From contig CAZYXN010000001.1 in NCBI GenBank assembly GCA_964651105.1, positions 179 through 64,178 on the forward strand: a stretch of 64,000 nucleotides of DNA. Direction: 5' to 3'. Made by a program: the position numbers and the translations under genes. Within the stretch, counting starts at the first letter, position 1; each line of letters starts with the position of its first letter. Positions 15,017 to 63,724 of this stretch are shown piece after piece. The DNA comes from an uncultured Muribaculum sp. Its GTDB lineage: Bacteria > Bacteroidota > Bacteroidia > Bacteroidales > Muribaculaceae. The notes under the pieces were generated by a model that searched no databases, was not told the origin of the DNA, and saw only the letters and a program-made list of their open reading frames with translations.

Positions 15017-15274
15017 TTATTCTTTAATCAATCGGCATGAGTCAACCAATTCATTATTGACATATAGAGAACCAAGTAAAAATAATGGTATTATTAAGGT
15101 CTTTATCATAGGATGATGATATAATTATTGCTATTTTCGCAAAAAATTGAAAATGTTTAAGAAAAACAAATAAAAATAGGGTAAATTTAAATTGTAAGAA
15201 TATTGGAATAGTTGAATGTGTTGTGATGTAACGGCAATAAACATTGAAATAATACGTTAGAATATAAAAATGTC

Positions 15275-15856: not shown

Positions 15857-15878
15857 TAAGTTGATTGATATCTTATTT

Positions 15879-18284: not shown

Positions 18285-18318
18285 AAATAAAAATTGGGTA
18301 AAATCCAATCCAAACTAT

Positions 18319-18326
18319 TATATTTG
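18319..18326 (+). promoter_or_regulatory. -7 promoter element
   Basis: TATATTTG, 27 nt upstream of ATG 18354. Confidence 0.6.
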
Positions 18327-18353
18327 TCGTTATAAAGTATAATACGATAGTTT

Positions 18354-18875: not shown

Positions 18876-18889
18876 TCAGATAGTTCTTT

Positions 18890-19522
18890 TTATAACGCTC
18901 CTTCTTCTACAAGGATGCATACGCGTTCTATAATCGCGTCATCCTTATTTTTATCGGGCCGATAGGATGATTTAAGATTTACGCCGAAGAAGTGTCCGAA
19001 AGTCTGCCAAAAACCGGCTCTGAATGTCCCGAGGAATGCTTTTAAAATAGAATAGCTGCTTTGGTTTGTTTCGCGGTTAATCAATTTTACAAGCATTTTA
19101 CCCTGTGATTTTGTAAATCTTTTTAATTCCGGTTTATATTGCGCGAATATCTCTTTTTCCATTTGGGATAAATATTGTTCGCGTTCTTTTTGAGTGGGAA
19201 AGGTTTCGATATATTCATAAGTTTCAAGAAGAGTTTCAGCTATAAGCTTGGCATATGGCAATGTGCGTTTCACATCTCTTACCGTACGCCAATAAAATTC
19301 TTCTTGTTTTTTATTTTTGAATTTTAATGTGGGAAAGACTGTTATGTTGTTCAGTACCACCATCAGTGCGGTATCACCTTGTTCTGTTATAAAATGATAT
19401 CGTCCTTCTATAGGTTTCTGACGGGGATTGGGCGGAACAGGCACGCCGTTGGTATCCACTGTTTGCGCGAAAGCAGTGACATGAAACAATATAGATATAA
19501 TGAGTATATGGAATAATCTCAT
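18890..19522 (-). CDS. DUF4294-family protein
   Basis: Signal peptide; RDVKRTLPYAK, QGKMLVKLINRET and FWQTFGHFFGVNLK resemble this Bacteroidetes family. Confidence 0.75.
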   Translation of the reverse strand: MRLFHILIISILFHVTAFAQTVDTNGVPVPPNPRQKPIEGRYHFITEQGDTALMVVLNNITVFPTLKFKNKKQEEFYWRTVRDVKRTLPYAKLIAETLLETYEYIETFPTQKEREQYLSQMEKEIFAQYKPELKRFTKSQGKMLVKLINRETNQSSYSILKAFLGTFRAGFWQTFGHFFGVNLKSSYRPDKNKDDAIIERVCILVEEGAL

Positions 19523-19566
19523 GTCACTATAACAATGAATATAGCTGAAATATTGTGAAATAAAAG

Positions 19567-21138
19567 TTAATGGTCAGTGTGTGGATAGTCTACGGTATAG
19601 TGAAGCCCTCTGGATTCTTTTCTTTCCATCGCTTGCCTCATGATGAGGTATCCTACATTTATTATGTTTCTGAGCTCGCATATTTCACGGCTTGCTTTAG
19701 AGCATTTGAACAGACGTTCAGTCTCTTCATACAGGATGTCAAGCCGGTTCCATGCGCGTTTTAGTCTTAAATCGCTTCGCACGATACCTACATAGGCCGA
19801 CATTATTTGGCCTACTTCCTTGATACTCTGAGTAATCAATACCATTTCTTCCGGGTGGCGCGTGCCTTCGTCATTCCATTCCGGCACATCAGTGCGGAAC
19901 GCATAATGTTCCTTGGCTTCAATTGCGTGCTTGGCTGCCGCGTCAGCATAAACAACTGCTTCAATCAGTGAATTTGAAGCAAGTCGGTTGCCTCCGTGGA
20001 GTCCTGTGCAAGAACATTCTCCCACGGCATAAAGCCTTTGGATTGAGGATTCCGCATTTGTATCTACCTTTATTCCTCCGCATAAATAATGGGCTGCAGG
20101 AGCTACGGGAATATAGTCTTTAGTGATGTCGATGCCTAATGAAAGACATTTCTTATAAATATTGGGGAAATGACGTTTGGTTTCTTCCGGATTTTTATGA
20201 GTTACATCAAGAAATACATGGTCGTCACCGGTCAATTTCATTTCAGAATCGATGGCGCGGGCCACGATATCTCGCGGAGCAAGAGATAGGCGTGAATCAT
20301 ATTTTTGCATGAATTCTTCGCCTTTCAGATTGCGAAGCACAGCTCCGTAACCTCTCATTGCTTCGGTTATTAAAAAAGAGGGGCGGTCGCCGGGATGATA
20401 AAGGGCTGTGGGATGGAATTGGATGAATTCCATGTCCTTTACAGTGCCTTTAGCTCGATATACCATGGCAATACCGTCGCCGGTCGCTACAAGAGGATTG
20501 GTGGTTGTTGTATAGACAGCGCCTACACCGCCGGTTGCCATGAGTGTTATTTTGGCAAGGAAAGTGTCGACTTTTCCTGTCTTATTATCAAGCACATATG
20601 CTCCATAGCATGTTATGTCGGGAGTGCGCCGAGTGACTATTTTGCCAAGATGGTGCTGAGTGATAATCTCGATTGCAAAATGATTTTCAAAAATATCGAT
20701 GTTTGGATTTGATTTAATTGCCTTTATGAGACTGTCTTGAATTTCTGCTCCGGTATTGTCTTTGTGATGCAGAATGCGGAATTCGGAATGCCCTCCTTCG
20801 CGGTGAAGGTCAAATTTTCCATCTTCGTTTTTATCAAAATCCACACCCCAATTTATGAGTTCCTTGATTTGTTGAGGAGCTCCTTTGACCACTTTTTCTA
20901 CTGCTTCACGATTGCTCAGCCAGTCGCCGGCAATCATAGTGTCTTCGATGTGCTTGTCAAAATTATCGACTTCAAGATTTGTAACAGAAGCCACGCCGCC
21001 TTGAGCTAAATAGGTATTTGCTTCTTCAAGGGTGGTTTTACAGATTAATGCCACTTTGCCTGTGCCGGCCACTTTGAGAGCAAAACTCATTCCTGCAATT
21101 CCGGAACCTATTACCAAATAGTCATATTCGTAAGTCAT
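19567..21138 (-). CDS. nadB: L-aspartate oxidase
   Basis: Start MTYEYDYLVIGSGIAG (FAD-binding motif); AQGG, REGGHS, QFHPT, TEAMRG, HYLCGG, GLHGGNRLASNSL, ESRGLHY. Confidence 0.96.
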   Translation of the reverse strand: MTYEYDYLVIGSGIAGMSFALKVAGTGKVALICKTTLEEANTYLAQGGVASVTNLEVDNFDKHIEDTMIAGDWLSNREAVEKVVKGAPQQIKELINWGVDFDKNEDGKFDLHREGGHSEFRILHHKDNTGAEIQDSLIKAIKSNPNIDIFENHFAIEIITQHHLGKIVTRRTPDITCYGAYVLDNKTGKVDTFLAKITLMATGGVGAVYTTTTNPLVATGDGIAMVYRAKGTVKDMEFIQFHPTALYHPGDRPSFLITEAMRGYGAVLRNLKGEEFMQKYDSRLSLAPRDIVARAIDSEMKLTGDDHVFLDVTHKNPEETKRHFPNIYKKCLSLGIDITKDYIPVAPAAHYLCGGIKVDTNAESSIQRLYAVGECSCTGLHGGNRLASNSLIEAVVYADAAAKHAIEAKEHYAFRTDVPEWNDEGTRHPEEMVLITQSIKEVGQIMSAYVGIVRSDLRLKRAWNRLDILYEETERLFKCSKASREICELRNIINVGYLIMRQAMERKESRGLHYTVDYPHTDH

Positions 21139-21158
21139 AGCACTTGAATTATTGTCAC

Positions 21159-21210
21159 GCAAAGTTAATGTAAACCTTATAAGTAAACAAAAAATTCTTA
21201 CTAACTTTGC
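21159..21210. promoter_or_regulatory. Back-to-back divergent promoters for nadB and the GT2/wecB unit
   Basis: CAAAGTTA at 21160-21167 (TAACTTTG on the minus strand) and TAACTTTG at 21202-21209 (plus strand). Confidence 0.7.
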
Positions 21211-21233
21211 AGATTGAATATAAAATTGTATAA

Positions 21234-22421
21234 GTGTTTTCTGGTGCGGATATAATAACGGCATGGTGTTTTACCGGGATTGCTGCGATAATGGCGATTG
21301 CGGTCACGTTGTTTTATACATGCCGTATATTTAAAGTGTGCAAAACGGTGAAAAATCAGTCTTTGGCTGATTTGCCCGACACTTTTCCATCCGTATCGGT
21401 GATTGTATATAGCAATGGGGATGCGGAAAGTCTATCAGTTGTGCTGAACCAATTGAAGGCGCAGAATTACCCGTCTGATTATGAAGTCGTGGCGGTTAAC
21501 GATGGAAAAGATTATGAAAGTGAGATGCTCCTTATGTCGTTGGCATCACAATGGAAAAATCTTCGTCACACGTTTACTCCTAAAGCGATGAGAAACGTGT
21601 CGCGTAAGAAGCTTGCATTGACACTTGGAATGAAAGCGGCTCGATATGACGTAATAATCCATATAACTTCATCGACACGCATAAATTCGGCTGACTGGCT
21701 TAAGTTTATGGCAGCTCCGTTTAATGACAATAAAGTCGACATGGTTATTGGATATGCTTGTCCTGACTCAAAAGCTGACACTCAATACGGCAATAGACGG
21801 CGAGCACACGACATGCTGATAACTTCGGTTCATTATCTTGCCTCAGCGTTGACAGGACATACGTATAGAGGAGATGGCGACAATCTGGCATATCGCCGTG
21901 ACAAGTTCTTTGAAATTAAAGGATTCAGTAATTCGCTGAATCTCCATTACGGAGACGATGATATATTTGTATGTGATGTGGCGACGCCGGAAAATACAAT
22001 GGTGATGATAGCGTCAGACGCTCAGGTAATGAGTGAAAGCAATCATCCGGTAGAAGTATATAAAAATAAAAAATACCGTTATGATTATACCTCCCGATAT
22101 TGTAACTGTTCACAAAATTGGCTGTATGATACAGTGAGCCTCATGTTTTGGATATGGTTGCTTTCAACAATTGGCGGTATTATGACCGGATACTATGATT
22201 TGAAAGTTTTGATTGCATTAGGTGTTGCGGCGATGGTTTTGTGGATTCCCCAGATTGCCGCATGGCGAAGCGCGTCAAAGTTATTGTCGGCGCGTCGGTT
22301 TATGTTGAGTGTTCCCGGCGCATTGATGGCTCGTCCGTTCTATAATTTCATTTACCATTTACGTTCCCATCGTATCCATACCGCTCATTTCACTTGGCAG
22401 GCCATCGGCAACCAACAGTAA
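21234..22421 (+). CDS. Membrane-anchored GT2-family glycosyltransferase
   Basis: VSVIVY, VVAVNDG, RKKLALTLG and GDDDIF; N- and C-terminal TM segments; GTG start. Confidence 0.85.
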   Translation: MFSGADIITAWCFTGIAAIMAIAVTLFYTCRIFKVCKTVKNQSLADLPDTFPSVSVIVYSNGDAESLSVVLNQLKAQNYPSDYEVVAVNDGKDYESEMLLMSLASQWKNLRHTFTPKAMRNVSRKKLALTLGMKAARYDVIIHITSSTRINSADWLKFMAAPFNDNKVDMVIGYACPDSKADTQYGNRRRAHDMLITSVHYLASALTGHTYRGDGDNLAYRRDKFFEIKGFSNSLNLHYGDDDIFVCDVATPENTMVMIASDAQVMSESNHPVEVYKNKKYRYDYTSRYCNCSQNWLYDTVSLMFWIWLLSTIGGIMTGYYDLKVLIALGVAAMVLWIPQIAAWRSASKLLSARRFMLSVPGALMARPFYNFIYHLRSHRIHTAHFTWQAIGNQQ

Positions 22422-50059: not shown

Positions 50060-51109
50060 ATGGATAATAGCTCTCGCCATCACATTCAATCGCTTCATTC
50101 TTTGAGATTTATTTTTATATTTCTCATATTTATTTCTCATTTTTCATGGAATGACAGCGGGTATTGGGATTTTGGGGGTGATTGTGGAGTATGTTTTTTC
50201 TTCATGCTTAGTGGATTTGTACTTTCTCTTCCGGAACAATCCGTGACTAATTACAGAGATTTCGTTGTAAAACGGTTGAAAAAGATTTATCCTGCCCATC
50301 TGTTGGCTCTCCTTGTCGCATTCATCGCTATCCCGTGGGGATTCAATATCTATTCGACTGCTGCGTCCATTTTTCTTTTGCAAAGCTGGGTCCCCTCAAG
50401 AGAGATTTATTTTGGAGCTAACGGTGTGGCATGGTTTCTGAGCGATATACTAGTGTTTTATCTCGTATTCCCTTGGCTCAAAGGTTTTTTATTTGAAATC
50501 AGATGGAAGCATGTGATAATTTTTTTTGCTTTTGCTATCTCTCTCTATTTCTGCGCGCTTCTTCCATATGTGCCAGAAGAGAAAGTTAACTGGATCCTTT
50601 ATGTCTTTCCTCCTGTGAGGCTGCTCGATTTTCTTTATGGTATTCTCCTTGCGAGACTTTATAAATACATTTTGCGGTCAGGTGTTAGAGTATCATCATT
50701 ATTTGCAAGCGTGTTGGAATTTGGCTCGTTAGTTTTGTTGTGTGTCACGTTGGTCGTATATTCCCATGTGTCACAGCGGTATGCCGTTGCTTCTCTGTTT
50801 TGGATTCCTTGCGGGGCTGTGATATTGGCGTTTGCGATCGGTGATTCTTATTCGGGAATTTTGAGCCGTTTTTTAGGGACGAAGATATTATTTTGGCTTG
50901 GAGCCATATCTTTTGAGTTTTATCTGATTCATGTGTCGGTGATACAGATGGCTTCCAGGATTGTCGGAAAATATTCCATAGAATTGCCGTATGCGATAAC
51001 TTTTTCAATAGTCCTGGCTTTTTCTGTTATTGCTGCTGCCGCTTTGCACAGTATAATTTCCGGGAAAGTGGGTGTTAAATATAATAAAATTTTGAAAGAC
51101 AGGTTATGA
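50060..51109 (+). CDS. Acyltransferase-3 (OafA-like) membrane O-acyltransferase
   Basis: SLHSLRF, FFMLSGFVL, RLKKIYP, AWFLS, GAISFEFYLIH; about 10 TM segments. Confidence 0.92.
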   Translation: MDNSSRHHIQSLHSLRFIFIFLIFISHFSWNDSGYWDFGGDCGVCFFFMLSGFVLSLPEQSVTNYRDFVVKRLKKIYPAHLLALLVAFIAIPWGFNIYSTAASIFLLQSWVPSREIYFGANGVAWFLSDILVFYLVFPWLKGFLFEIRWKHVIIFFAFAISLYFCALLPYVPEEKVNWILYVFPPVRLLDFLYGILLARLYKYILRSGVRVSSLFASVLEFGSLVLLCVTLVVYSHVSQRYAVASLFWIPCGAVILAFAIGDSYSGILSRFLGTKILFWLGAISFEFYLIHVSVIQMASRIVGKYSIELPYAITFSIVLAFSVIAAAALHSIISGKVGVKYNKILKDRL

Positions 51110-52638
51110 AGCGATTTGCCGATAAATATATGTTGATGTCATGGGGTGTCATTCTCATCTTTACCGTGACATTGTTTTATCTTTCTGCCATATTCTTTTG
51201 GTCTTCCGATTCGCCTTTTTTCGCACTGAGATTTGAGATGGACGGCAGCGATTCCTATCGTAAAATGGAAGGGGTGTGGGATCTTTTTCAGTCCCAATGC
51301 ACCCATTATATGACGTGGAGCGGTCGATTTGTCTGTCAGTCGCTTGTGCAGTTTTTTTGTGCCTTTACTGAAAGGCCGGTCTTTGAGATATGCAATATGC
51401 TGGTATGGCTGGCATTTATTTTCCTGTCATTGCGTCTTGCCGGAATAAAAGTAAAGAATACGGCATCGCTGTTTATGGTTGTATGCATGTCGTTCCTTAT
51501 ATTTATAAATATCCCGTATGACCCTCCTTTCATGATAAATTATCTTTGGATGGGGACGTTGGTTATGGCATGGCTGAATATCTTCTTTTCATCTGCCAAG
51601 AAATCGGCTGTTCAGTTGGCACTCATATTTCTATTAAGCATATTGGCGGGAAATTCTCAGGAATCGTTTTCAATACCTTTGTCGGGCGCGTTGACTGTTT
51701 GGATTATAATGCGGAGATTCCGGCTTAATAAAATGGAATGGGTCGCTGTCGCAGGATTCTTTATTGGCGCTCTGACAGTTGTTGCGGCCCCAGGTAATTA
51801 TGTGCGGCTGGGGATTGTGATGGACGAGAACGGACGTATGGGCGCGGGCATTCTGCGTAACATATTTATGGCGTTGCCGCAGATTTGCATTGCGTTGTTT
51901 TTAGGGACGGTGACTTATAAACGCATCAAAGATGCCCGGATGGCGGGGATTGCGTTGTCGACTGAAACTTTGTTGCTTTTGCTTGCCGCATTGTTTTCAA
52001 TAGTATTGGCGGCTTTATTGAAATTCGAGATTCTGGCGCGAGTCATGATTCCCATGAATATATTTCTTTCGGTTACCGCTTTCAGCGGCGGATTCAAGTT
52101 GCGGCATGAACGGTCTGTTATTGTTCTCCTTTCAATCATATGTGCGGTTACCGTCATGCTTGAATATCGTACATACGTATCCAATAATGAGAAATATTCT
52201 CTCATAACAAAGCTCTATCATGAATCAGAAAGTGGCGTTGTCGTTATTCCTGACGAGATGTTTTGCAAGGATGACGGGAGAAACGGTTACTACGATTTGG
52301 GATTTGTCATACAGGAGCGTGTCGATAACCCTGATAAACCTTTTTTGAAAAGATATCCTGAATCGCTGACAAGAATTGAAATAGGCAACGACACTAATTT
52401 TGTAATGCGTATTGCGCCGCAGGCATGGCTTATCGGGCAGTCGCTGACCTGTCCGGAATCATTTGTGATAAAAAAGAGCCTTTTTCCCGGAGCAGTCGAT
52501 TTGCCTATGTCAGACAGGATTATTGATGCTTCGTCATCGAAAGAACTCGTAATTGATACAATCAATAATACTGTAATCCGGGTGTATGTGAATAACCGGT
52601 GGTATATAGAGGCGGATGTTATGTTAAAAGTAGATTAG
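51106..52638 (+). CDS. Polytopic membrane protein, DUF6056/GT-C-like
   Basis: HYMTWSGRF, NYLW, GNSQE and AAPGN motifs; many TM segments plus a soluble C-terminal tail; start overlaps the acyltransferase stop. Confidence 0.65.
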   Translation: MKRFADKYMLMSWGVILIFTVTLFYLSAIFFWSSDSPFFALRFEMDGSDSYRKMEGVWDLFQSQCTHYMTWSGRFVCQSLVQFFCAFTERPVFEICNMLVWLAFIFLSLRLAGIKVKNTASLFMVVCMSFLIFINIPYDPPFMINYLWMGTLVMAWLNIFFSSAKKSAVQLALIFLLSILAGNSQESFSIPLSGALTVWIIMRRFRLNKMEWVAVAGFFIGALTVVAAPGNYVRLGIVMDENGRMGAGILRNIFMALPQICIALFLGTVTYKRIKDARMAGIALSTETLLLLLAALFSIVLAALLKFEILARVMIPMNIFLSVTAFSGGFKLRHERSVIVLLSIICAVTVMLEYRTYVSNNEKYSLITKLYHESESGVVVIPDEMFCKDDGRNGYYDLGFVIQERVDNPDKPFLKRYPESLTRIEIGNDTNFVMRIAPQAWLIGQSLTCPESFVIKKSLFPGAVDLPMSDRIIDASSSKELVIDTINNTVIRVYVNNRWYIEADVMLKVD

Positions 52639-53336: not shown

Positions 53337-53346
53337 GGGGGGGGGG
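53337..53346. repeat. G10 homopolymer upstream of the TBDT operon promoter
   Basis: AAAAC-GGGGGGGGGG-TAGC, ending 26 nt before the -7 element. Confidence 0.9.
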
Positions 53347-53372
53347 TAGCATAGATTCTTGTATTATATTTC

Positions 53373-53380
53373 TACATTTG
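53373..53380 (+). promoter_or_regulatory. -7 promoter element of the TBDT/DUF4876 operon
   Basis: TACATTTG, 43 nt upstream of ATG 53424. Confidence 0.65.
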
Positions 53381-53423: not shown

Positions 53424-56276
53424 ATGCGAATATCATTATTGGCTATGTTAAGAATGATGGTAGTTCTCGTTATTATGGGAGCTGTATCATCTCTGGCGGT
53501 AGAGGCCCAGGAAGCTAATACCTTCAGCATACGCGGTACTGTTTACGAGTACACGCAACCGGGAGATTCCGTGGCTTTGGGTTTTGCCACTGTGACGATA
53601 CCGGATTATGGAATCGCTACCACAACGGCAGCCGACGGACACTATTTGTTGAAAGGTGTTCCTAAAGGGAAAGCTACGATAAAAGTTTCTTATGTAGGTA
53701 AAGTGACCATTGAAAAAGTTGTGGAGGTTTCAAAGTCGATGACTTTGAATTTTTCAATGCGTGAAGAGAACTTCAAATTGAAGGAAGTTATGGTCACCGC
53801 GCAAGCTTCACAGGCAGGTGGCGCCACCTCTTCTATCATAGGGCGTAACGCGATGGACCATATGCAGGCTACGAGTCTTGACGATGTATTGTCGCTTCTT
53901 CCCGGAGAGTTGTCGACCGAGCCTAACTTGAGCGGAAATAAGGAGGTGAACATCCGTAATATCGCTTCCGGCCCTTCTGCAATGAACGCAATGGGTTCTG
54001 CGATTATCCGAGACGGCGCTCCGATTTCAAATAATGCCAACCGTTCGGTTATAAGTCCGGGATTTAATGGTACTATGGAGAATTATAACGCAGGTGGCGG
54101 AGCCACTCCTGACGGTGGTGTCGATTTGCGTTCTATCTCTACCGACAACATTGAATCGGTGGAAGTGATTCGCGGTATTCCCTCTGTAGAGCACGGCGAT
54201 CTCACTTCAGGCGCTGTGATTATTAATTCCAAAGCAGGACGTGAACCTATACGTATCACTGCCAAGGCAAATCCTAAAGTATATATGGGTTCGGCAAGCG
54301 GCGGCTTTTTGCTTAATAAAAACCGTGGCGGTCTTAATTTCAATGTGGATTATGCTCACAATACCAATAATCCTACACAATCTTACCAGACTTATCAGAG
54401 AGCTTCGGGGCGTGTTATGTATTCCAAAGAGTTCTCGCAGAAATTGCGCACCAATACTTCGTTGAACTTTATATATGGAAAAAACAATCGCGCCCTTAAT
54501 CCTGATGATGAGAGCTATCAACGCAAGTCTCGCGGTGAAGAATACGGAATAACATTGAATACCAACGGATTGTGGAGTATTGACAAGGGTATCCTCAAAT
54601 CTCTCCGTTACGTGGTGTCTGGTACATATACATCCAAACAATCTCGTTATCAGAGTATCGTTTCGTCAAATAACACTCCTTATTCAGGAACTCTTGTCGA
54701 CGGAACGGTGGTGTCCAATACACCGGGCAAACACTTGTTTGATGCCGATGGCAATGAAATTACAAACTTTGGAGGTGTTGATGCCGATAAATTCGCTTAC
54801 TGTTTGCCTGCCAATTATCTTTCATGGAATAAGATAGATTCACGAGAAGTCAATATCTTTGCCAAACTTGTCGCTACATTGTTCAAGCAGACAGGCTATA
54901 TCAACAACCGTGTTCTTCTTGGCGCTGACTTCCGTAGTGACGGAAACGTGGGACATGGTAAATCATGGGATCCGCAGGGGCCTCCCGAACGAGAAGTCAG
55001 CCGTCCTAACGGTGTTATGCGTCCTCATGAGTTCCGTGACGATCCGTTCCTAAATCAGCTTGGCGTTTTTGCTGAGGAAAATTTCATGTGGCAGATGGGG
55101 CTTCATGAGTTGCGTTTGCAGGCCGGTGTCCGTTATGATCACGCCAATCGTGTTGGCGGTATTGTATCTCCCCGTTTCAATGGTTCGTTTGAGATTCTTC
55201 CTTCAAAATTATGGATTCGCGGCGGATATGGTGTGACTGCAAAGATGCCTACGCTTCTATATCTCTATCCGGAAAAAGTTTATTTTGAGTATGTAAATCT
55301 GAATGAACTCTCTTCTACAAAAATTCCAGAAGAAGATCGTATATACATGACGACTACCAAAATACATGATGTGGATGTGTCGCATCTGAAGATTGCCACC
55401 AACCGTAAGGCAGAAATCGGTTTTGACTTGCGTCTGGGCAGATCAACCTTCAATGTTACCGGATTTTTCGAACGTCTTAAGAACGGTTATTCTTATGTGA
55501 CCAATCTGAATACTTTCGCTCCATTCGAATGGACTGAATATAAGCGTGACGCTAATATGGGATTGATTGAAAGCGCCACTAATACAGTGCTTTCCGACTG
55601 GCGTGCTCCGGGTAATGATTTGTCATTGACAACCCGTGGTGTGGAATTTGATTTCTCTCTCGGACGTATTGAAAAAATTAATACCACATTCTCGCTAAAC
55701 GGTGCATGGATTCGTTCAAAAAGTCGTAATGGCTCATATGATTTCTACGATCCGACATCGTCTATGTCCGCTGCAAGCCGTAAAGATATCGCCATTTATG
55801 CAGGAAATGCTCTTACTCGCTATGACGAGCGGTTCGCGACAACTTTGCGTGTGACCCATAACTTGCCTAAAATCGGTTTTGTTGTCACTCTGTCGGCTCA
55901 GGCCGTATGGAAAGATGCCAATTGGGGAAAATATGGCAACGATTCTATTCCTGTAGGTTACATGTCGCTTAAGGACGGACAGCCTCATTTCTTCGAGGAT
56001 GGACAGTTCAATACCGTTGAGGAATTCCGTGACTCGGAATACAGTTATATGTATCGTGCCGCCAACCATCCTCTTGAGAAGCGTGAATCGTACAATCCTT
56101 ATTTTTGCTTCAATATGAATGTGACTAAAGAGCTTGGTGACATGATGCGTGTGTCATTCTTTGCAAACAATATGTTCCGAAGCTATCCGCGTCGTGAGTC
56201 TCACCGTAATCTTGGAACTTATGTGTTGAAAAACAATCGTTTCTATTTTGGAGTGGAACTTTCTATCACCCTTTAA
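53424..56276 (+). CDS. TonB-dependent outer-membrane transporter (non-SusC type)
   Basis: Signal peptide; carboxypeptidase-regulatory-like N-domain; LKEVMVTA TonB box; ATSLDDVLSLLPG; NIESVEVIRGIPSVEHGDLTSG plug motif; barrel strands. Confidence 0.93.
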   Translation: MRISLLAMLRMMVVLVIMGAVSSLAVEAQEANTFSIRGTVYEYTQPGDSVALGFATVTIPDYGIATTTAADGHYLLKGVPKGKATIKVSYVGKVTIEKVVEVSKSMTLNFSMREENFKLKEVMVTAQASQAGGATSSIIGRNAMDHMQATSLDDVLSLLPGELSTEPNLSGNKEVNIRNIASGPSAMNAMGSAIIRDGAPISNNANRSVISPGFNGTMENYNAGGGATPDGGVDLRSISTDNIESVEVIRGIPSVEHGDLTSGAVIINSKAGREPIRITAKANPKVYMGSASGGFLLNKNRGGLNFNVDYAHNTNNPTQSYQTYQRASGRVMYSKEFSQKLRTNTSLNFIYGKNNRALNPDDESYQRKSRGEEYGITLNTNGLWSIDKGILKSLRYVVSGTYTSKQSRYQSIVSSNNTPYSGTLVDGTVVSNTPGKHLFDADGNEITNFGGVDADKFAYCLPANYLSWNKIDSREVNIFAKLVATLFKQTGYINNRVLLGADFRSDGNVGHGKSWDPQGPPEREVSRPNGVMRPHEFRDDPFLNQLGVFAEENFMWQMGLHELRLQAGVRYDHANRVGGIVSPRFNGSFEILPSKLWIRGGYGVTAKMPTLLYLYPEKVYFEYVNLNELSSTKIPEEDRIYMTTTKIHDVDVSHLKIATNRKAEIGFDLRLGRSTFNVTGFFERLKNGYSYVTNLNTFAPFEWTEYKRDANMGLIESATNTVLSDWRAPGNDLSLTTRGVEFDFSLGRIEKINTTFSLNGAWIRSKSRNGSYDFYDPTSSMSAASRKDIAIYAGNALTRYDERFATTLRVTHNLPKIGFVVTLSAQAVWKDANWGKYGNDSIPVGYMSLKDGQPHFFEDGQFNTVEEFRDSEYSYMYRAANHPLEKRESYNPYFCFNMNVTKELGDMMRVSFFANNMFRSYPRRESHRNLGTYVLKNNRFYFGVELSITL

Positions 56277-56289
56277 TTGAAAAACAGCT

Positions 56290-57546
56290 ATGAAGAAATA
56301 TCTATATACTTTTTCTGCGGTTGTCGCCATGATGTCTCTTGCGTCCTGTGACCAGTTCAAAGAGGCTAATGACGCGGCGCCGGTAGAACCGATAAAAATC
56401 TCTCTTGACCTCAACACGGCCATTGGAGGAGGCGAAGAGGTCACTTTTGGCGACGAGATGATTGTGAAGCTTGACAATTATACTGAAGGACTTCATTATG
56501 AAAAATCATTTTCAGGATCAAAAGTTGAAATAGACGGTGTTGTGCCTGGAATTTATTCTGTTAATGTTTCCGGTACAGCGACTCTTTCTGACGGAACCGA
56601 ATACATTCTTGCCGCCAGTATGATCAACAAGCCGCTTATTGAATCGCTGAATTTCCCGTTGGAGCTTAAAGGTTCAATGAAAGGAACTTTGGTGTTTTCT
56701 GAGATATATTATTGTGGTAGCAAGCCTCCGACAGGATTCTCTTGGTTCCGTGACCAGTTCTATGAGATTGCCAACAATACCGATGAGGTCCAGTATCTTG
56801 ACGGCTTGCATTTCGCTCATACCGACCGTATTAATTCAGATCACACTATGCCTATCTGGCCGGAAAGCGACGAGGGTAAATATATCTATCTTGACCGTGT
56901 ATGGAAATTCCCGGGTTCAGGTACCGACTACCCTCTTCAACCTGGTGAATCGTGTGTAGTGGCTCAGTTTGCAGCCAATCAGAAACTTGAGATTTATAAT
57001 CCCAACTCTCCGGTGGATTTGTCGACAGCCGAATTTGAATTCTGTATGAATAATCCGAATTATCCCGACCAGCCTGCTGTAAATATGGAGCATGTGTATT
57101 ACGATGGCAGTGACGCAATGCTTCTTCCACAATACTTGACTCCGGTGTTTGGTTGCGGTTATGTGCTATTCCGTATTCCCGACGGAGAGACTTGGAATCC
57201 GGCACATGATTTGACGCTTCAGACTAAAAACGCCGCTGATTCATGGTCGGATATTTTTGCCAAGCTTCCTTTGGAATATGTCATTGATGTAGTAGAGGCT
57301 ACTCCAAATGAATCATATGTGGCAGAGAAAAATATACCTGCCGTTCTTGATGCCGGTTTCGTGACAGTGGGAGGTATCTATCTTGGCCAGGGAGTGACAC
57401 GTAAACGCGACACTAAAACTGTAGCCGCCAATGGGGCAGTTCTCTATCAGGACACCAATAATTCTTCCGAAGACTTTGAGTGTAACGTAGTTCCTGTTAT
57501 TCACCGTCATTCCGGTGTTCCCTCATGGAATCCATCTCTCCAATAA
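56290..57546 (+). CDS. DUF4876-like surface lipoprotein
   Basis: Lipobox LASC followed by DQFKE; LVFSEIYYCG, DQFYEIANN, FPGSGTDYPLQPG, QDTNNSSEDF. Confidence 0.8.
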   Translation: MKKYLYTFSAVVAMMSLASCDQFKEANDAAPVEPIKISLDLNTAIGGGEEVTFGDEMIVKLDNYTEGLHYEKSFSGSKVEIDGVVPGIYSVNVSGTATLSDGTEYILAASMINKPLIESLNFPLELKGSMKGTLVFSEIYYCGSKPPTGFSWFRDQFYEIANNTDEVQYLDGLHFAHTDRINSDHTMPIWPESDEGKYIYLDRVWKFPGSGTDYPLQPGESCVVAQFAANQKLEIYNPNSPVDLSTAEFEFCMNNPNYPDQPAVNMEHVYYDGSDAMLLPQYLTPVFGCGYVLFRIPDGETWNPAHDLTLQTKNAADSWSDIFAKLPLEYVIDVVEATPNESYVAEKNIPAVLDAGFVTVGGIYLGQGVTRKRDTKTVAANGAVLYQDTNNSSEDFECNVVPVIHRHSGVPSWNPSLQ

Positions 57547-57558
57547 TTTTAAGACAGT

Positions 57559-59211
57559 ATGAAAATGAGTAAAATTTATAACATCCGCAAAATAGGAGCG
57601 ATTGCTCTTCTATCATCATTATGCGTCCCGGTGACGATTGCGCAGGAAGCGAGAGAGCATGCCAACCACAGTCATGAGGGAGAGGCGTGCTGTGCAGATT
57701 GCAATCATTCCGCCTTGTCGCCGGAGGGATATTCTTCAGCTTCTCTTGAATTGTTGAAAGAACGTCGTCTCTGGTTCCATTCGACCAATGCTGCCGGAGC
57801 GATATTTGACAACAAGCAGAATTATTCTGAAGTCAAAATCGGCTATGACCGTGAATCTGGCAACTATCACCGTCCGCAACAGGGTCAGCTGGTTATTAAT
57901 GCCGGTGTAGACTGCGAGGGCTTCATGAATCTTGGAAATGCCTTGGTATGGGGCGAATTCTCATTTAAGCAGCGCAATATAGACAAGGCCGGGTTCAATG
58001 CGTCAATATCCGATCCATATCGCGGGATGCCGTTTTTTATCGCTGACGAGCATCTTAGCGATTGGCGCAATCAGTATTATAATATGAAATTCCGTGCCTC
58101 TACACCTCTTTATTGGGGCAAAGTGGCTTTCGGTGTTGAAGGAAATTATCGTGCCGATCTTGCTGCAAAGCAGCTTGACCCGCGTGTCGACACCCGTTAT
58201 TTTGAGCTTGGGGTGAATCCGAGTGTGGCCTATTCAATTGACCGCCATAATTCTATCGGAGCCGTATTCGAATATACCGCGCTTAAGGAGGATTCTCGAA
58301 TGGAAAGTGTAAACATGTCTGACCCTCAGAATGTTTACTGGCTTAACGGTCTTGGGACGGCTATAAAGGAGATTGTGGCTTATGATCTGCCGCGTACCGA
58401 TTATCACGGTCATATCTTGGGGGGCGGTCTGCAATATAATTTCCGTAAAGGCGGTTTCAATCTGCTCGCGACTGTCGATTTTACACGCCATATCGAGAAT
58501 ATGGATAAGAATCCGCAAGTTCCCGAAAAGAAGTCGTCAGTGAGAAATGATTTGTGGAAATATTCCGTTCTGTTCCGTTATCATGGAAAAAGTTGGAGCC
58601 ATCATTTCAATTTTGAAGGAATAGAACGCAATAACCATGGTATTCAATATATCAATGAATTCAACAACAGCGAGAACAATCCTGGTTGGAAAGTGCTGGA
58701 TCACAGTGTCCGTTCCACATATAAAACTACGGCTTTCAATGTAGACTATTCACTTATCCGCAACCGTGCCGACGAATATGCATGGCGTGTTGATGCCGGA
58801 ATCTCTTACCAGTATCAACGTGACGAGTATCTTTTGCCTGATGCCCATAAATCGTATAAGAATATTTACAGTCATCTGACGGCTAAGTATAATGCTGCTC
58901 TTGGCGCCAAGTACAACCGCCGTCTTCTGATTGCCGCCAATGGAGGGTTCAATCACAATATCGATGGCAAGTATACTTACAACGCTTCTAATCCCGATTT
59001 TCCTACAGTGACTCAGCTTGAGACCGGCGAAATCCAATATTTCTCTTCCGATTTCTGGAATCTTGGCGCTTCGGTGTCATATTCACAGCAGATAAAGGAA
59101 TCGAACAGAATGAATGCTTATGCGCGCGCTGAATTCAATTATGTGAAGACCCACAGCTATGATTTCAACAATCGTCGCTACATGGCGTTTGCCATCGGTG
59201 TGACATTCTGA
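57559..59211 (+). CDS. DUF6850-like outer-membrane beta-barrel protein
   Basis: Signal peptide; amphipathic strands; NAxG, DPYRGMPF and DPR motifs; C-terminal Phe (IGVTF). Confidence 0.75.
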   Translation: MKMSKIYNIRKIGAIALLSSLCVPVTIAQEAREHANHSHEGEACCADCNHSALSPEGYSSASLELLKERRLWFHSTNAAGAIFDNKQNYSEVKIGYDRESGNYHRPQQGQLVINAGVDCEGFMNLGNALVWGEFSFKQRNIDKAGFNASISDPYRGMPFFIADEHLSDWRNQYYNMKFRASTPLYWGKVAFGVEGNYRADLAAKQLDPRVDTRYFELGVNPSVAYSIDRHNSIGAVFEYTALKEDSRMESVNMSDPQNVYWLNGLGTAIKEIVAYDLPRTDYHGHILGGGLQYNFRKGGFNLLATVDFTRHIENMDKNPQVPEKKSSVRNDLWKYSVLFRYHGKSWSHHFNFEGIERNNHGIQYINEFNNSENNPGWKVLDHSVRSTYKTTAFNVDYSLIRNRADEYAWRVDAGISYQYQRDEYLLPDAHKSYKNIYSHLTAKYNAALGAKYNRRLLIAANGGFNHNIDGKYTYNASNPDFPTVTQLETGEIQYFSSDFWNLGASVSYSQQIKESNRMNAYARAEFNYVKTHSYDFNNRRYMAFAIGVTF

Positions 59212-59260
59212 TGTCTCGACTAAGTAAAGAGTATACATAAATAACTTTAACAAAAACAAT

Positions 59261-61414
59261 ATGTGCCTTAATTCATTTCTTGGCGTAGCATTATTGATCG
59301 GTCTGTGCTCCCCGGCGGGGGTACAGACTATTGTCAAACCTGATGCCAAGATTTCCAAAACATCATTTGCTATTATAACCGATACGCCTTTGTGGGAAGA
59401 GTGTTCTGAAGAAATGAGCCGTTTTGCCGCTCAGTTACAATCGGAAGGTCTCCCCGCATTTATCGTTTATGACCGGTGGAAATCGCCGGAGCAGGTGAAA
59501 AAAGTAATTAAAAACCTTTATAAGAAGCATTCTCTTGAGGGTGTGATGCTGGTAGGGGATGTGCCTGTCGCTATGATTCGCAAGGGGCAGCACCTCACAT
59601 CGGCGTTCAAGATGGACGAAGAGAGCGATTGGATTGATTCTTCGGTTCCGTCTGATCGTTTTTACGATGATTTCGACCTTAAGTTTGACTTTATACGTCC
59701 TGATTCCGCCCGGCAGGGATTTTTTTACTACAATCTTGCGGCGGAGTCGCCACAACAGATCAGGTGTGACATCTATTCTTCACGCGTGAAGCCGATAGAC
59801 AATGGCGAACCGAGAGCCGTGCAGATAAAGAGATTCTTTAATAAGGCTGTAGCCGAACATAAAGCTGATAACCGTCTCGACCAATTTTATTCTCATACCG
59901 GCGACGGTTCATATTCCAATTCTTTGAATGCGTGGACGGCAGAAGCCGCTACGATACGTGAGCAGATGCCCGGAACATTTGATAGTCCCGCTTCTCCGGG
60001 ACGTGCCCGATTCACACGTTACAGCTTCAGTCCGTATCCAAAGCGTGACATCATCAATATGCTGAAAAATGATAAGCTTGACCTTGCCATTTTCCATGAA
60101 CACGGTATGCCGGCCCGACAGTATATATCGGGTATTCCTTCTTCAGAGGATCTTGATACACACGTTAAGTTATATCGGGAGCACCTCAGGGATCGGGCTC
60201 GTCGCATAGCCGGCGATTCCGCGAAGTATGCAGCTTTTGAGGCTGATAAAAAAGCTCTCGGGCTTGAACCGGCATGGTGGAATGACTACAATACTCCGGA
60301 GCAAGTCAAGGCTGACTCGATAACTGATGCCGACCGTGGAATTATGCCGGAAGATATAACCGCTTTCAAGCCCAATAGCCGAATGGTTATTTTCGACGCA
60401 TGTTATAACGGAGATTTCCGTGAACCGGACAATATTGCCGGCCGCTATATTTTTGCCGATGGAAAGACTGTCGCTACTTTTGCCAACAGTGTGAATGTGC
60501 TTCAGGACAAACAGGCTAACGAGCTTCTCGGCCTTCTGTGGCTTGGCGCCAGAGTAGGACAGTGGGCAAAGGAAACCAATATCCTGGAAAGTCATATAAT
60601 AGGTGACCCGACATTCCGCTTCAGTTCATCTGTACCTGGAGTCGACGCAGCCGAGATATGCCGCCGTCCTTATAATGAAGCTGATGAACGTGAGATGCTC
60701 AAATCGGAATATGCCGATTTGCGTAATCTTGCAATGCACAGATTATGGAGCAATGATGCCAAAGGGCTTTCCCCTATGTTGGCTGAAATTTTCCGCACAT
60801 CTCCGGTCGCTATGGAGCGTTACACCGCATTAAGCTTGCTTGAGAAAATCAATGATGCCGAATATCAGGCTATTCTTCCTGACGCTTTGTGTGACGCAAA
60901 TGAATTTATTCGACGCACTACCGTGAGCCGTATGGGGCATGTGGGGAAAGACAATTATGTCAAGTGTCTTGTGGATGCTTATTTTGATGACACACAGGCG
61001 ACTCGAGTAGTGTTCCAGATAGAGAATAATATCCATCATTTCGGAGAGGATGCCTTCAACAAGGCTATTGCCTCATATGATGGCGAGCGTGCCGACAAAT
61101 TACGTAAAGCATATGAGAGACGTAAGAGCGCCGATGAGGCGATTCTCAACCATGACGGAAAATACCGTAAAGTGTATATCAAGTCATTGCGAAACGGCAA
61201 TATTCATGCCACTCTTTCCGATTATCTTGCATTGCTTGAGAGTCCGGAAGAATCCGATGATATAAAGGTAGCCATGCTCGACGCTCTTGCATGGTACAAT
61301 CACTCCTACCGTCGTAATGAAATACTTGCGGTATGCGAGCGTCTGACCAAATCGTCAGGAGTATCCAAATCTGTAAAAGATCAGGCTAAACGCACTTATT
61401 TCCGTCTTAAATGA
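59261..61414 (+). CDS. Peptidase C25 (gingipain)-like domain plus HEAT repeats, paralogue 1
   Basis: Signal peptide; VMLVGDVP, SDRFYD, FHEHG (His at 60101), FDACYNG (Cys at 60401); HEAT-like C-terminal half (ALCDANEFIRRTT). Confidence 0.7.
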   Translation: MCLNSFLGVALLIGLCSPAGVQTIVKPDAKISKTSFAIITDTPLWEECSEEMSRFAAQLQSEGLPAFIVYDRWKSPEQVKKVIKNLYKKHSLEGVMLVGDVPVAMIRKGQHLTSAFKMDEESDWIDSSVPSDRFYDDFDLKFDFIRPDSARQGFFYYNLAAESPQQIRCDIYSSRVKPIDNGEPRAVQIKRFFNKAVAEHKADNRLDQFYSHTGDGSYSNSLNAWTAEAATIREQMPGTFDSPASPGRARFTRYSFSPYPKRDIINMLKNDKLDLAIFHEHGMPARQYISGIPSSEDLDTHVKLYREHLRDRARRIAGDSAKYAAFEADKKALGLEPAWWNDYNTPEQVKADSITDADRGIMPEDITAFKPNSRMVIFDACYNGDFREPDNIAGRYIFADGKTVATFANSVNVLQDKQANELLGLLWLGARVGQWAKETNILESHIIGDPTFRFSSSVPGVDAAEICRRPYNEADEREMLKSEYADLRNLAMHRLWSNDAKGLSPMLAEIFRTSPVAMERYTALSLLEKINDAEYQAILPDALCDANEFIRRTTVSRMGHVGKDNYVKCLVDAYFDDTQATRVVFQIENNIHHFGEDAFNKAIASYDGERADKLRKAYERRKSADEAILNHDGKYRKVYIKSLRNGNIHATLSDYLALLESPEESDDIKVAMLDALAWYNHSYRRNEILAVCERLTKSSGVSKSVKDQAKRTYFRLK

Positions 61415-63630
61415 GCCGAATCATGAAACAACTGTTATTTTCATTTATAATGGCTGTGACTGCGGTATTTTCCGCGTCAGCCGATATCGTGATTGACAAG
61501 CCTGTAAGCAAGGATTGTCCAACATCATTCGTTATTATTGCCGACAGCGCCACTTGTGCGGCTACCCGTCCGGCGATGCTTCGTTATAAAAACGCGCTTG
61601 AGGCCGACGGTCTCGCTACTTATATCGTAAGCGCTGATTGGAAGTCTCCGACACAGGTGCGTGAGACGCTTAAGAAGCTGTATGCGTCTGACCCGAAAAT
61701 AGAGGGTATAGTCATTGTAGGCGATGTGCCGGTAGCGATGGTCCGTAACGGTCAGCATATGACCACCGCATTCAAGATGGATGAGGACGCATTTCCTTTT
61801 ATCGATTCTTCGGTGCCATCCGACCGTTTCTATGATTGCCTCGACCTTGATTTCCGGTTTTTGAAGCAGGATGAGACCGAGAACCATCTGTTTTATTATG
61901 AACTCGCTGAGGATTGTCCGCAGCGTCTTAATCCTACCTTCTACTCAGCTCGTATACGTTATCCGAAATTACGTGGAGGAGATAAATATGAAGAGATTGC
62001 GAAGTTCCTTGATAAGGCGGCTTCGGCAAAAGCCGATATGAAGACGGATTGTGTGGATCGTGTGGTTTCGTTTAACGGCCACGGCTATAATTCCGATTGC
62101 CTTATTGCATGGATGGATGAGGAGAAAGCCTATAGAGAGCATTTTCCGGCAGCTTTCAATACATCGACCGGTTTCAAACATTGGAATTTCAGAATGGAAG
62201 AACCGATGAAGCCGGCGATATTCAAGGAGCTTGAGCGTCCAGGCATTGATTTGTTCATGTTCCATGAACATGGCGCGCCTACCACTCAGTATATAAACGG
62301 TTATGGAGAGGCTGAGAGTCAGGATGCCCGCTTGCGGTATATAAAACTTGGCATATATTCCCGCATCGAACGTGCGGTAAAGAAAGGCAATGACGAAGCA
62401 GAGGTGATCGAGGCATTTGCCAAGGAATATCAGCTTGATTCATGTTTCTTCAAGGATTTGCACAATCCTGAATTTGCCGCATCCGATTCAATTGCATATG
62501 CTGCGAAGGATATTGAGGCTAACGAGTTTCATAATCGTGTGACTATGCCGCGAATGGTTATGTTTGACGCATGCTACAACGGTTCGTTCCATGAGGATGA
62601 TTATATCGGCGGCGAATATCTCTTTAATCCGGGAACCACGCTTGTTACACAGGGTAATACGCGTAATGTGCTCCAAGACCGATGGACTATAGAGATGATA
62701 GGGCTCTTATCTCACGGAGTGCGTGCCGGACAATATAATCGTCTGGTAGCGACTCTCGAAGGACACATGATGGGCGATCCCACTGTGAGATTCGCTCCGC
62801 TGGAGCCCAACACGCTTTCAGCTGATATGACTCTTCGTAAGGCTGACCGAGCATATTGGGAGTCTTTGACAGAATCCCCGTATGCCGATGTCCGTTCGAT
62901 AGCCTTGAGAATGCTTTCGGCTATTACTCCCGAATCTGAAATGTCGCCGAAGCTGCTTGAGATTTTCCGTACATCTCCGTTTAATACCACGCGTATGGAG
63001 GCTCTTAAACTTCTTGGAAATTATTGCAATGCCGATTTCAAGGAAGCTGTGCGTCTGGGATTAAACGATCCTTATGAACGTATAGCGCGCATGAGTGCGG
63101 ACTTTGCGTCGGAAATAGGTGATACGGCTCTTCTTCCGGAAGTGATTGAAGCCTATATCGATGGCAATGAGCGGCAGCGTGTCAACTATACCTTGGGAAG
63201 CTCGCTTATTCTGTATCCCAAGGAAGACGTAATCAAGGCGGTCAATAACTACTATTCGTCGGCAAACCGTTTCAATGCCGATGAGGAAAAAGCCGAGCTT
63301 ATCGAGGGTATATCTCATTCATATGAGCGGGCAGAAAAGGATAACGAGGCAATAAGCGACACTACCCTTACGGAGAAGATACGTGTACGGAACATCCGTT
63401 TTGTCCGCAATAATCCGTTCCACTATCAGCTTGACAGGTATCTGGCTACGATTGCCGACAGCGGCAACTCCGACAAAATCCGTGTGAATATGGCTGAAGC
63501 TCTCGGATGGTTCAAATATTCTTATCGTAAAGGAGAGATTCTGGATTTCTGCGAAAAAATGATTGCTGCCGATGATGTGCCTGATGTTGTGAAAGCTGAA
63601 CTTCGTCAGACAGCCAATCGACTGAAGTGA
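61411..63630 (+). CDS. Peptidase C25 (gingipain)-like domain plus HEAT repeats, paralogue 2
   Basis: Signal peptide (likely start MKQLLF); IVIVGDVP, SDRFYD, FHEHG (His at 62269), FDACYNG (Cys at 62572); HEAT-like repeats (LGLNDPYERIAR). Confidence 0.7.
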   Translation: MSRIMKQLLFSFIMAVTAVFSASADIVIDKPVSKDCPTSFVIIADSATCAATRPAMLRYKNALEADGLATYIVSADWKSPTQVRETLKKLYASDPKIEGIVIVGDVPVAMVRNGQHMTTAFKMDEDAFPFIDSSVPSDRFYDCLDLDFRFLKQDETENHLFYYELAEDCPQRLNPTFYSARIRYPKLRGGDKYEEIAKFLDKAASAKADMKTDCVDRVVSFNGHGYNSDCLIAWMDEEKAYREHFPAAFNTSTGFKHWNFRMEEPMKPAIFKELERPGIDLFMFHEHGAPTTQYINGYGEAESQDARLRYIKLGIYSRIERAVKKGNDEAEVIEAFAKEYQLDSCFFKDLHNPEFAASDSIAYAAKDIEANEFHNRVTMPRMVMFDACYNGSFHEDDYIGGEYLFNPGTTLVTQGNTRNVLQDRWTIEMIGLLSHGVRAGQYNRLVATLEGHMMGDPTVRFAPLEPNTLSADMTLRKADRAYWESLTESPYADVRSIALRMLSAITPESEMSPKLLEIFRTSPFNTTRMEALKLLGNYCNADFKEAVRLGLNDPYERIARMSADFASEIGDTALLPEVIEAYIDGNERQRVNYTLGSSLILYPKEDVIKAVNNYYSSANRFNADEEKAELIEGISHSYERAEKDNEAISDTTLTEKIRVRNIRFVRNNPFHYQLDRYLATIADSGNSDKIRVNMAEALGWFKYSYRKGEILDFCEKMIAADDVPDVVKAELRQTANRLK

Positions 63631-63673
63631 CAATTGAACATATCGCATCTAAGGCGATGCGTTGACTTATTCG

Positions 63674-63724
63674 GGGCTGTGTCACTGCATGCATTCAGGT
63701 AATGCTGATGACACAGCCCTTTCT
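63674..63724 (+). terminator. Rho-independent terminator of the TBDT operon
   Basis: GGGCTGTGTCA (63674-63684) / TGACACAGCCC (63709-63719), inner GCATT/AATGC stem, followed by TTTCT. Confidence 0.75.

Follow-up and report, generated by a model that had tools for sequence, protein, structure and literature searches.

A conserved Bacteroidota operon joining a TonB-dependent transporter and a DUF4876 lipoprotein to a DUF6850 barrel and divergent C25-HEAT proteins

Introduction

The FusA/FusC system of Pectobacterium takes up ferredoxin by means of a TonB-dependent transporter (TBDT) and a periplasmic M16 protease, and in Porphyromonas gingivalis haem is acquired by gingipains acting together with HmuY and HmuR. 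Here we analyse a five-gene operon in a 64,000-nt stretch of DNA from an uncultured Muribaculum sp. (assembly GCA_964651105.1, contig CAZYXN010000001.1, positions 179 to 64,178; hereafter the window), in which a non-SusC TBDT, a DUF4876 surface lipoprotein and a DUF6850 outer-membrane beta-barrel protein are followed by two paralogous secreted proteins, A and B, whose N-terminal domains we assign by transitive homology to the gingipain family. Non-SusC TBDTs of Bacteroidota are mostly orphans; this operon, which occurs across gut and environmental members of the phylum, ranks with the most broadly conserved. We read it, tentatively, as a nutrient-acquisition system.

The five open reading frames (ORFs), all on the + strand, span 53424-63630 with intergenic gaps of 13, 12 and 49 nt followed by a 4-nt overlap, a layout given in a preliminary description of the sequence and reproduced exactly by the ORF coordinates. 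GC content is uniform over the block. The genes are as follows.

53424..56276, + strand: TBDT, non-SusC, 950 aa, with signal peptide, N-terminal CarboxypepD_reg-like domain, plug and barrel
56290..57546, + strand: DUF4876 surface lipoprotein, 418 aa, with lipobox LAS|C and Asp at +2; PF16215, E 1.3e-45
57559..59211, + strand: DUF6850 outer-membrane beta-barrel protein, 550 aa, with signal peptide and C-terminus ...GVTF; PF21012, E 4.2e-109
59261..61414, + strand: C25-HEAT paralogue A, 717 aa, with signal peptide, divergent Peptidase_C25-like domain and C-terminal HEAT repeats
61411..63630, + strand: C25-HEAT paralogue B, 739 aa, architecture as in A; His287-Gly288 at nt 62269-62274, Cys388 at nt 62572-62574

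The identities first proposed for genes 1 to 3, a non-SusC TBDT, a surface lipoprotein and a barrel with C-terminal Phe, are borne out by Pfam and NCBIfam matches, the lipobox and the GVTF end. Gene 1 matches PF13715 (CarbopepD_reg_2, E 1.2e-13) and PF07715 (Plug, E 5e-10), with no SusC/RagA model, TIGR04056 included, among its NCBIfam matches. In agreement with the earlier statement that such components are absent, no SusD, carbohydrate-active enzyme (CAZyme) or ABC transporter was matched by Pfam in the five operon proteins.

Comparison with described systems

Genes 1 and 2, adjacent and co-oriented, are homologues of BT1939/BT1938 and resemble other pairs of a non-SusC TBDT with a lid (BtuB-BtuG, XusA-XusB, HmuR-HmuY); the feature set of the BT1939/BT1938-type lid system is present in the form of a plug-bearing TBDT, a 13-nt gap and a co-oriented DUF4876 lipoprotein with a lipobox. 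BT1939/BT1938 has been proposed as a transporter-lid pair and modelled with a ~20-angstrom opening, the TBDT/DUF4876 adjacency is kept in 81 genera, and a B. fragilis DUF4876 homologue is surface-exposed (bioRxiv 10.1101/2023.03.17.533168). That work covered the pair alone, not the three to four downstream DUF6850/C25-HEAT genes. Residues 30-416 of the DUF4876 protein match PDB 4Q1Z, a 'putative lipoprotein' (E 1.7e-121), for which a literature search found no publication, while the window TBDT has no sequence relative in the PDB. We regard the DUF4876 lipoprotein as a putative partner of the TBDT, serving as its lid or in substrate binding.

The likeness to FusA/FusC lies in the combination of a TBDT with one or more secreted putative peptidases in one iron-responsive locus and in a possible import-then-dismantle logic, and one variant operon (L115, below) even bears an upstream M16 peptidase gene. 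The window operon differs in that its putative peptidases belong to clan CD (C25-like), are fused to HEAT repeats and come as two to three paralogues, and in that it adds a surface lipoprotein lid and the DUF6850 barrel; protein import is putative here. It encodes no M16 protease, FusB-type TonB or FusD-type ABC transporter, and is not a Fus member.

With the gingipains RgpB and Kgp and with PorU (C25; PDB 4IEF, 1CVR, 4RBM, 6ZA2), proteins A and B share a homologous family, the same motif order and a dyad at the positions of H211/G212 and C244. They are nevertheless very divergent, with no direct Pfam, PDB or Foldseek match and with ~70 additional residues between His and Cys, and they lack propeptide, Ig-like, adhesin and type IX secretion system (T9SS) C-terminal domains, having a 250-aa HEAT domain instead. 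Unlike gingipains, they are probably periplasmic and are encoded within a TBDT operon. The window operon also differs from Hmu in having no HmuY-family gene (no PF14064 match); such genes occur only in variants L114, L116, L117 and L124. RagAB and SusCD likewise combine a Bacteroidota TBDT with a surface lipoprotein partner, and RagAB imports protease-generated peptides, but the window TBDT is not of the SusC/RagA type, SusD/RagB is absent, and the putative peptidases are encoded inside the operon.

The earlier remark that this combination has no functional description stands in so far as literature searches on BT1934-37, DUF6850 and the C25-HEAT genes found none; the TBDT/DUF4876 pair, the iron response and 4Q1Z were, however, already known. 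The locus is thus known in passing only and functionally undescribed; the assignment of the 'HEAT repeat' genes to C25, like their strict linkage with DUF6850, appears not to have been described before.

Assignment of the distal proteins to the C25 family

A and B are 36% identical over their full length (E 9e-136), and both carry FHEHG and FDACYNG motifs. Their sole match in Pfam and NCBIfam scans is HEAT_2, in the C-terminal half (E 1.6e-7 in B), and the C-terminal ~250 residues of each consist of HEAT repeats. In A, the C25-like domain covers about residues 22-460 (nt 59324-60640), with His281-Gly282 at nt 60101-60106 and Cys381 at nt 60401-60403, separated by a helical insert of ~70 aa. 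No T9SS C-terminal sorting domain, as is typical of gingipains and of PorU-dependent cargo, was found in A or B; such a domain reflects the route of secretion and does not define the peptidase fold.

The family assignment rests on bridging relatives. A search of 1.84 billion representatives with the window N-domain profile returned 719 relatives, the best 150 of which are close family members throughout. When 66 relatives were scanned singly, 14 matched PF01364 (Peptidase_C25), with a best E of 2.4e-12, and one matched the caspase family PF00656. Four of them, P0259, P0261, P0258 and P0264, scored 47.2, 36, 33.4 and 26.8 bits, all above the gathering threshold of 23, with coverage reaching profile positions 27-371 of 374, and these four are without most of the ~70-residue helical insert. 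Because relatives that pass the PF01364 threshold also match the window N-domain profile strongly (E 1e-89 to 1e-98), we assign the N-terminal domains of A and B, by transitive homology, to the C25 family (gingipain family, clan CD) as divergent members. The clan-CD-like His/Cys motifs and C25-like character originally ascribed to the distal genes are thereby upheld, both by these relatives and by the invariance of the dyad across orthologues: His, Gly and Cys are 100% invariant in 79 A, 75 B and 66 C paralogues (220 orthologues), the pattern that purifying selection on a putative active site would produce. The neighbours of the dyad, H279 and D379, are variable in paralogue B.

A profile-profile comparison gave a compatible register. 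The RgpB catalytic-domain sequence (identical to PDB 4IEF_B) was combined with Kgp and PorU segments into a three-sequence C25 alignment, with which a 105-sequence N-domain profile aligned colinearly in hhalign across 299 columns, though with weak statistics. In this register, LEGVxxVGD/SxR/HG/DACxNGxF/GDPT falls on VGD/GR/H211-G212/C244/GDPS of RgpB, so that H281/G282 of A coincide with H211/G212 and C381 with C244. Pairwise phmmer comparisons of the bridge proteins with RgpB and PorU gave local matches around the Cys only.

AlphaFold2 models of paralogue A were confident, with predicted local distance difference test (pLDDT) scores of 87 (full protein) and 86 (N domain, residues 22-460). HEAT proteins dominate the Foldseek matches of the full-length model; ChlH, which appeared among them with a probability of 0.38, was treated as noise.

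Conservation of the operon

A one-genome-per-species scan with paralogue A found 509 relatives, from which 80 loci were kept; the closest relatives are in metagenome-assembled genomes (MAGs) of Duncaniella and other Muribaculaceae, at 71-73% identity. The order TBDT, DUF4876, DUF6850, A, B is found in all 80 of these loci whose contig extends far enough, across Muribaculaceae, Bacteroides, Phocaeicola, Prevotella, Odoribacter, Butyricimonas, Alistipes, other Rikenellaceae and Prolixibacteraceae. The five-gene arrangement is far beyond chance. Its gene order is identical in every related locus with enough flank. TBDT orthologues are 36-71% identical and are invariably first among the core genes. 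A third paralogue (C) is present in most of the 80 loci, behind B or ahead of the TBDT, while the window and its nearest relatives have two only.

The preliminary description had proposed surveying DUF6850 neighbourhoods for the genes in the distal slot. A metagenome search through DUF6850 alone, based on a narrow alignment whose reach was relatives at least 47% identical to that clade, recovered the identical operon in 31/31 loci (111 loci together with the A-based set), each with C25-HEAT genes in the distal slot. Together with the 80 loci and the divergent loci, this substantiates the co-conservation of the distal genes with TBDT, DUF4876 and DUF6850. Very divergent loci (L112-L118 and L123-L126) retain DUF6850 followed by two C25-HEAT genes, and the contexts of ten very divergent family members show the same operon in most cases. 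Natural fusions of A and B, of about 1400-1480 aa, occur at L107:3374-7807 and in P0121 (1419 aa) and P0122 (1402 aa), which suggests from gene structure that the two paralogues act together.

Three divergent loci depart from this layout. At L119:10001-13812, a tandem C25-HEAT pair neighbours exonuclease VII genes and faces, in convergent orientation, a TBDT-DUF4876-DUF6850-HEAT operon at 15029-21911, and L121:6731-8860 and L122:409-2376 are orphan divergent C25-HEAT copies detached from the transporter.

Transcription and iron response

None of the public RNA runs contains the window sequence, and two raw-read RNA runs labelled as this species gave zero reads on the orthologue. For the orthologous locus of B. 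xylanisolvens (L015), three studies provide RNA-seq contigs, of 13.1, 12.8 and 12.1 kb, each across the whole operon, from 5' of the TBDT to about 280 nt beyond the third paralogue. In the runs with these spanning contigs, depth is several-fold lower upstream, and past the operon end there is none in 4/4 runs; the fourth, deeper run shows read-through from upstream. The contigs are the expected picture of a single polycistronic unit for the Bacteroides orthologous operon, and are also compatible with overlapping transcripts or some DNA carry-over. The co-transcription of the distal genes, which the preliminary description had presumed, is thus seen across the Bacteroides operon.

The public XB1A record of L015 contains a run of N at 4300-4676 and a 1-nt indel at 4814 inside the TBDT gene, which divide it into two ORFs. 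The RNA-seq contigs bridge the N run with 48 nt and lack the extra base, and because they close the gap and omit that base the TBDT gene is probably intact.

In B. thetaiotaomicron, the orthologous locus BT1933-39 is 3.5-7.4-fold up on iron depletion, and P. gingivalis PG1019-22 (DUF4876, TBDT, hypotheticals) is 20-214-fold up in low iron (PMC10434189). PG1019 is co-regulated with HmuY and flavodoxin in P. gingivalis (PMC10470040, PMC12119571, PMC13096392). A k-mer survey of upstream regions recovered the promoter motif only, and an alignment of these regions showed no conserved operator.

Proposed function

The functional model of import and proteolysis is a plausible hypothesis. We favour, while judging it somewhat short of probable, a nutrient-acquisition operon that would capture a protein or large peptide carrying iron or haem, import it and break it down by proteolysis in the periplasm. 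The DUF4876 lipoprotein, on the extracellular face of the TBDT, would help to capture a ligand, probably of protein nature and carrying iron or haem, and the TBDT would carry it into the periplasm on TonB energy. There the two secreted C25-HEAT paralogues (three in most lineages), probably operating as a hetero-oligomer, would process the ligand and release the nutrient, with the DUF6850 barrel as their obligatory outer-membrane partner, whether as anchor, export route or second channel. We infer the protein cargo, the proteolysis itself, the hetero-oligomer and the iron or haem pay-off; a periplasmic location of A and B is likewise predicted, because they have signal peptides and no T9SS domain, and because some relatives carry lipoboxes without acidic export signals.

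A more specific version is more doubtful: TBDT and lid would import whole iron- or haem-proteins or large haem-peptides, and a clan-CD hetero-oligomer with HEAT clamps, docked on DUF6850, would dismantle the cargo, which would amount to a Fus-like strategy that arose independently and uses another protease clan. If import with proteolysis is the right hypothesis, protein uptake followed by breakdown in the periplasm, known from a few plant pathogens, would also be a trait of dominant gut commensals, and clan-CD peptidases would acquire a nutritional function in the periplasm; the operon would then be relevant to the resistance of commensals and oral pathogens to host nutritional immunity. Recognition of the C25 domains with their invariant dyad, together with the variant peptidases and HmuY-like proteins described below, gives this set of DUFs a concrete hypothesis of function that is genetically testable in B. 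thetaiotaomicron.

Several observations weigh against import with proteolysis. A and B themselves give no PF01364 match even at E<=10; sequence and profile searches of the PDB with the full protein and the N-domain profile yielded alphaRep/HEAT proteins or nothing, and no C25 protein; and a Foldseek search of the PDB with the N-domain model returned only structures of TM<0.25 (PBP/LacI-like), with no gingipain or PorU in the top 50. The hhalign support is weak (P 0.028, probability below 2%). Iron induction in B. thetaiotaomicron is modest, and E. coli-type Fur boxes are not enriched upstream (mean best match 11.7 vs 11.6 in shuffles). The operon is without an inner-membrane transporter and without a dedicated TonB, and the HmuY, papain-like and M16 additions are confined to distant variants, with none in the window. 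C25-fold proteins can also be transpeptidases, as PorU is, rather than degradative enzymes. BT1938 and BT1939 mutants were without phenotype in 519 fitness experiments (bioRxiv 10.1101/2023.03.17.533168).

The DUF6850 barrel and its partners

NCBI labels homologues of gene 3 'DUF6850 family outer membrane beta-barrel protein', and in every operon context examined the C25-HEAT genes come after it. This inseparability, set against the occurrence of DUF4876-TBDT pairs without annotated HEAT neighbours, suggests that DUF6850 serves the C25-HEAT peptidases rather than the DUF4876 lid.

The same facts bear on a different reading, which we rate as improbable, namely an envelope-assembly module in which the C25-like proteins would act like PorU, as sortase-type transpeptidases or signal-processing peptidases, and DUF6850 would behave like PorV/PorQ or Slam, together exporting, maturing or anchoring the DUF4876 lipoprotein or other surface proteins in the service of the TBDT. 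Its closest precedent is PorU, which matched the RgpB query and is a non-degradative C25-fold protein working with outer-membrane barrels. The inseparability of DUF6850 and the C25-HEAT genes in all operon contexts would suit it, as would the DUF4876-TBDT pairs without annotated HEAT neighbours (BT3631-33, PG1019-22) and the need for the DUF4876 protein to reach the surface. Yet other DUF4876 lipoproteins are apparently surface-located without such a module, a single maturation step would hardly account for two or three diverged paralogues that carry large HEAT domains, and the papain-like, M16 and HmuY additions of variant operons fit nutrition better. The absence of a T9SS C-terminal domain also counts against it, as does that of Pfam similarity between DUF6850 and PorV/FadL, PorQ or Slam (DUF560), and gut Bacteroides are not known to have a T9SS. 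Slam, an accessory outer-membrane barrel tied to surface lipoproteins and TBDTs, and PorU-PorV-PorQ-PorZ, in which an outer-membrane barrel works with a C25-fold enzyme, are accordingly architectural analogies only, DUF6850 having no family match to DUF560, PorV or PorQ and the operon no T9SS signals.

Directly behind the signal peptide of the window DUF6850 protein, at residues ~32-52 (nt about 57652-57710), lies a His/Cys-rich insert, EHANHSHEGEACCADCNHS. It looks like a metal-binding tail and is missing from about 70 orthologues examined, making it lineage-specific.

Variant operons

Divergent relatives of the operon carry additional genes. Five distant loci (L112, L114, L116, L117/L118, L124) encode a secreted papain-like cysteine peptidase of 450-514 aa that matches no Pfam family and has the motifs DQxGGSCAQAS, GSHAMTIVGYDD and VNSWG, with the Cys, His and Asn-Ser-Trp signature of clan CA intact; its profile matches the papain-fold proteases 6A0N (E 1.6e-9) and 3OIS (E 1e-3) in the PDB. 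In 4/5 of these loci, L112 being cut off, the papain-like gene is followed by one for a lipoprotein-like protein of 108-131 aa. This short protein passes the HmuY threshold in three loci (38-51 bits, gathering score 27), with matches to the N-terminal half of the HmuY profile only, and the L124 protein has a precomputed PF14064 match and fits a profile built from the other three. The HmuY-family loci are therefore L114, L116, L117 and L124, with the gene within or beside the operon, and the L117 papain-like peptidase has an additional HmuY-like C-terminal segment. The papain-like/HmuY regions are located as follows.

L114:13081-14909
L116:12629-14331
L117:11514-13446
L124:5157-7078 (- strand)
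L112:5490-5924

At L115:191-4479, the genes directly upstream of the TBDT-DUF4876-DUF6850-HEAT set and co-oriented with it encode a 920-aa M16 peptidase (two M16/M16_C pairs), a protein with a 4Fe-4S domain and an uncharacterized protein of 223 aa; the arrangement, a single case in one MAG, is reminiscent of FusC. A further addition characterizes 20 loci of an environmental Bacteroidia clade (L047:1528-1971, L079:1518-1961, L109:3077-3580 and 17 others), which have a Cys/His-rich ORF of ~146 aa about 100 nt upstream on the same strand. It encodes an N-terminal transmembrane helix followed by GIGRYSCHCDHAS, CSC, HxCxCGxHL and DDCC, with a conserved tail IKTFQALF...QLIL, and has no Pfam or NCBIfam match. 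Taken together, the variant extras and the DUF6850 insert point repeatedly, at the level of gene content, to proteolysis and to haem or metal.

The haem and metal side of this evidence would also fit the uptake of a small molecule (haem, another tetrapyrrole or a metal-chelate), with the C25-HEAT proteins as periplasmic receivers or processors that perform no proteolysis; here a metal or cofactor would be bound by the conserved Cys/His and the other invariant polar residues D132, R133, E443 and H445, and a tetrapyrrole by the PBS-lyase-like HEAT domain. We consider this unlikely. Several points speak for it: orthologues are regulated by iron and haem limitation, HmuY-family genes occur in variant operons, HEAT_PBS is matched in 10/66 family members alongside a weak NblB match, and His/Cys-rich features accompany the system, in the DUF6850 insert of the window and in the conserved 146-aa membrane protein encoded upstream in 20 loci. 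Most non-SusC TBDTs, moreover, carry small ligands (bioRxiv 10.1101/2023.03.17.533168). Against it stand the homology of the domain to C25 peptidases, with the exact catalytic dyad positions kept, and the recruitment of further bona fide peptidase families by variant operons; in addition, the variability of H279 and D379 in B is contrary to a fixed multi-ligand metal site, and the HEAT_2 matches are generic.

In one lineage (L125/L126:2323-4045), genes for an extracytoplasmic function (ECF) sigma factor and a FecR-type anti-sigma factor stand directly 5' of a longer TBDT (1019 aa) in the same operon type, an arrangement that suggests trans-envelope signalling control there. Such genes ahead of the operon might be taken for a sign of a peptide-sensing, signalling or anti-phage/defence system, and caspase-like and HEAT domains are known from some defence systems; paralogue B even has a weak match to the HEAT-ARM model of PADLOC (E 0.0019). 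FecR-type control is, however, typical of nutrient TBDTs, every component is an envelope protein with a signal peptide, the operon sits in the core genome of many families outside defence islands, and orthologues are regulated by nutrient limitation. The defence alternative raised in the preliminary description found no support, PADLOC giving no significant match for the operon set, and we regard sensing or defence as very improbable.

Promoter, terminator and flanking genes

The operon is flanked by the following elements.

53337..53380, + strand: promoter region, with a G10 homopolymer (53337-53346) and then a Bacteroidetes -7 type motif, TAcaTTTG (53373-53380)
63673..63720, + strand: terminator-like hairpin, 43 nt past the last stop codon; free energy (dG) -34.9 kcal/mol, z -4.42

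One promoter motif and one terminator had been described for the operon, and this was partly sustained. In a motif scan, TAcaTTTG, 44 nt 5' of the TBDT ATG, is the sole promoter-type motif in the 258-nt upstream spacer, but seven additional + strand matches to its class lie within the operon coding sequence, which limits its uniqueness to the intergenic region; with 62 occurrences in the window against 57.5 expected, the class is not enriched, and taken alone the motif is weak evidence. The hairpin is strong, with 0/200 shuffles equally stable, but the U tract behind it is weak. A scan with sigma-70 and terminator consensus sequences was uninformative in this phylum.

The G10 homopolymer sits 27 nt 5' of the -7 motif. 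In gut-metagenome contigs of an apparent single variant strain (48 identical differences over 1 kb), run X1 has G11 and run X3 has G10, and an X4 contig begins immediately past the tract. The difference in length could reflect slipped-strand phase variation of the operon, or it may be assembly noise at a homopolymer.

The next gene 3' of the operon is DEAD-box helicase-like and starts at 63801, with its own TAtaTTTG motif at 63763, and the gene 5' of the operon, on the opposite strand, encodes a SpoU-family methyltransferase. Just 5' of the latter, at 50060-52638 on the + strand, an Acyl_transf_3 acyltransferase (349 aa) and a DUF6056 membrane protein (510 aa) are encoded with a 4-nt overlap, and look like an envelope-modification pair unrelated to the operon.

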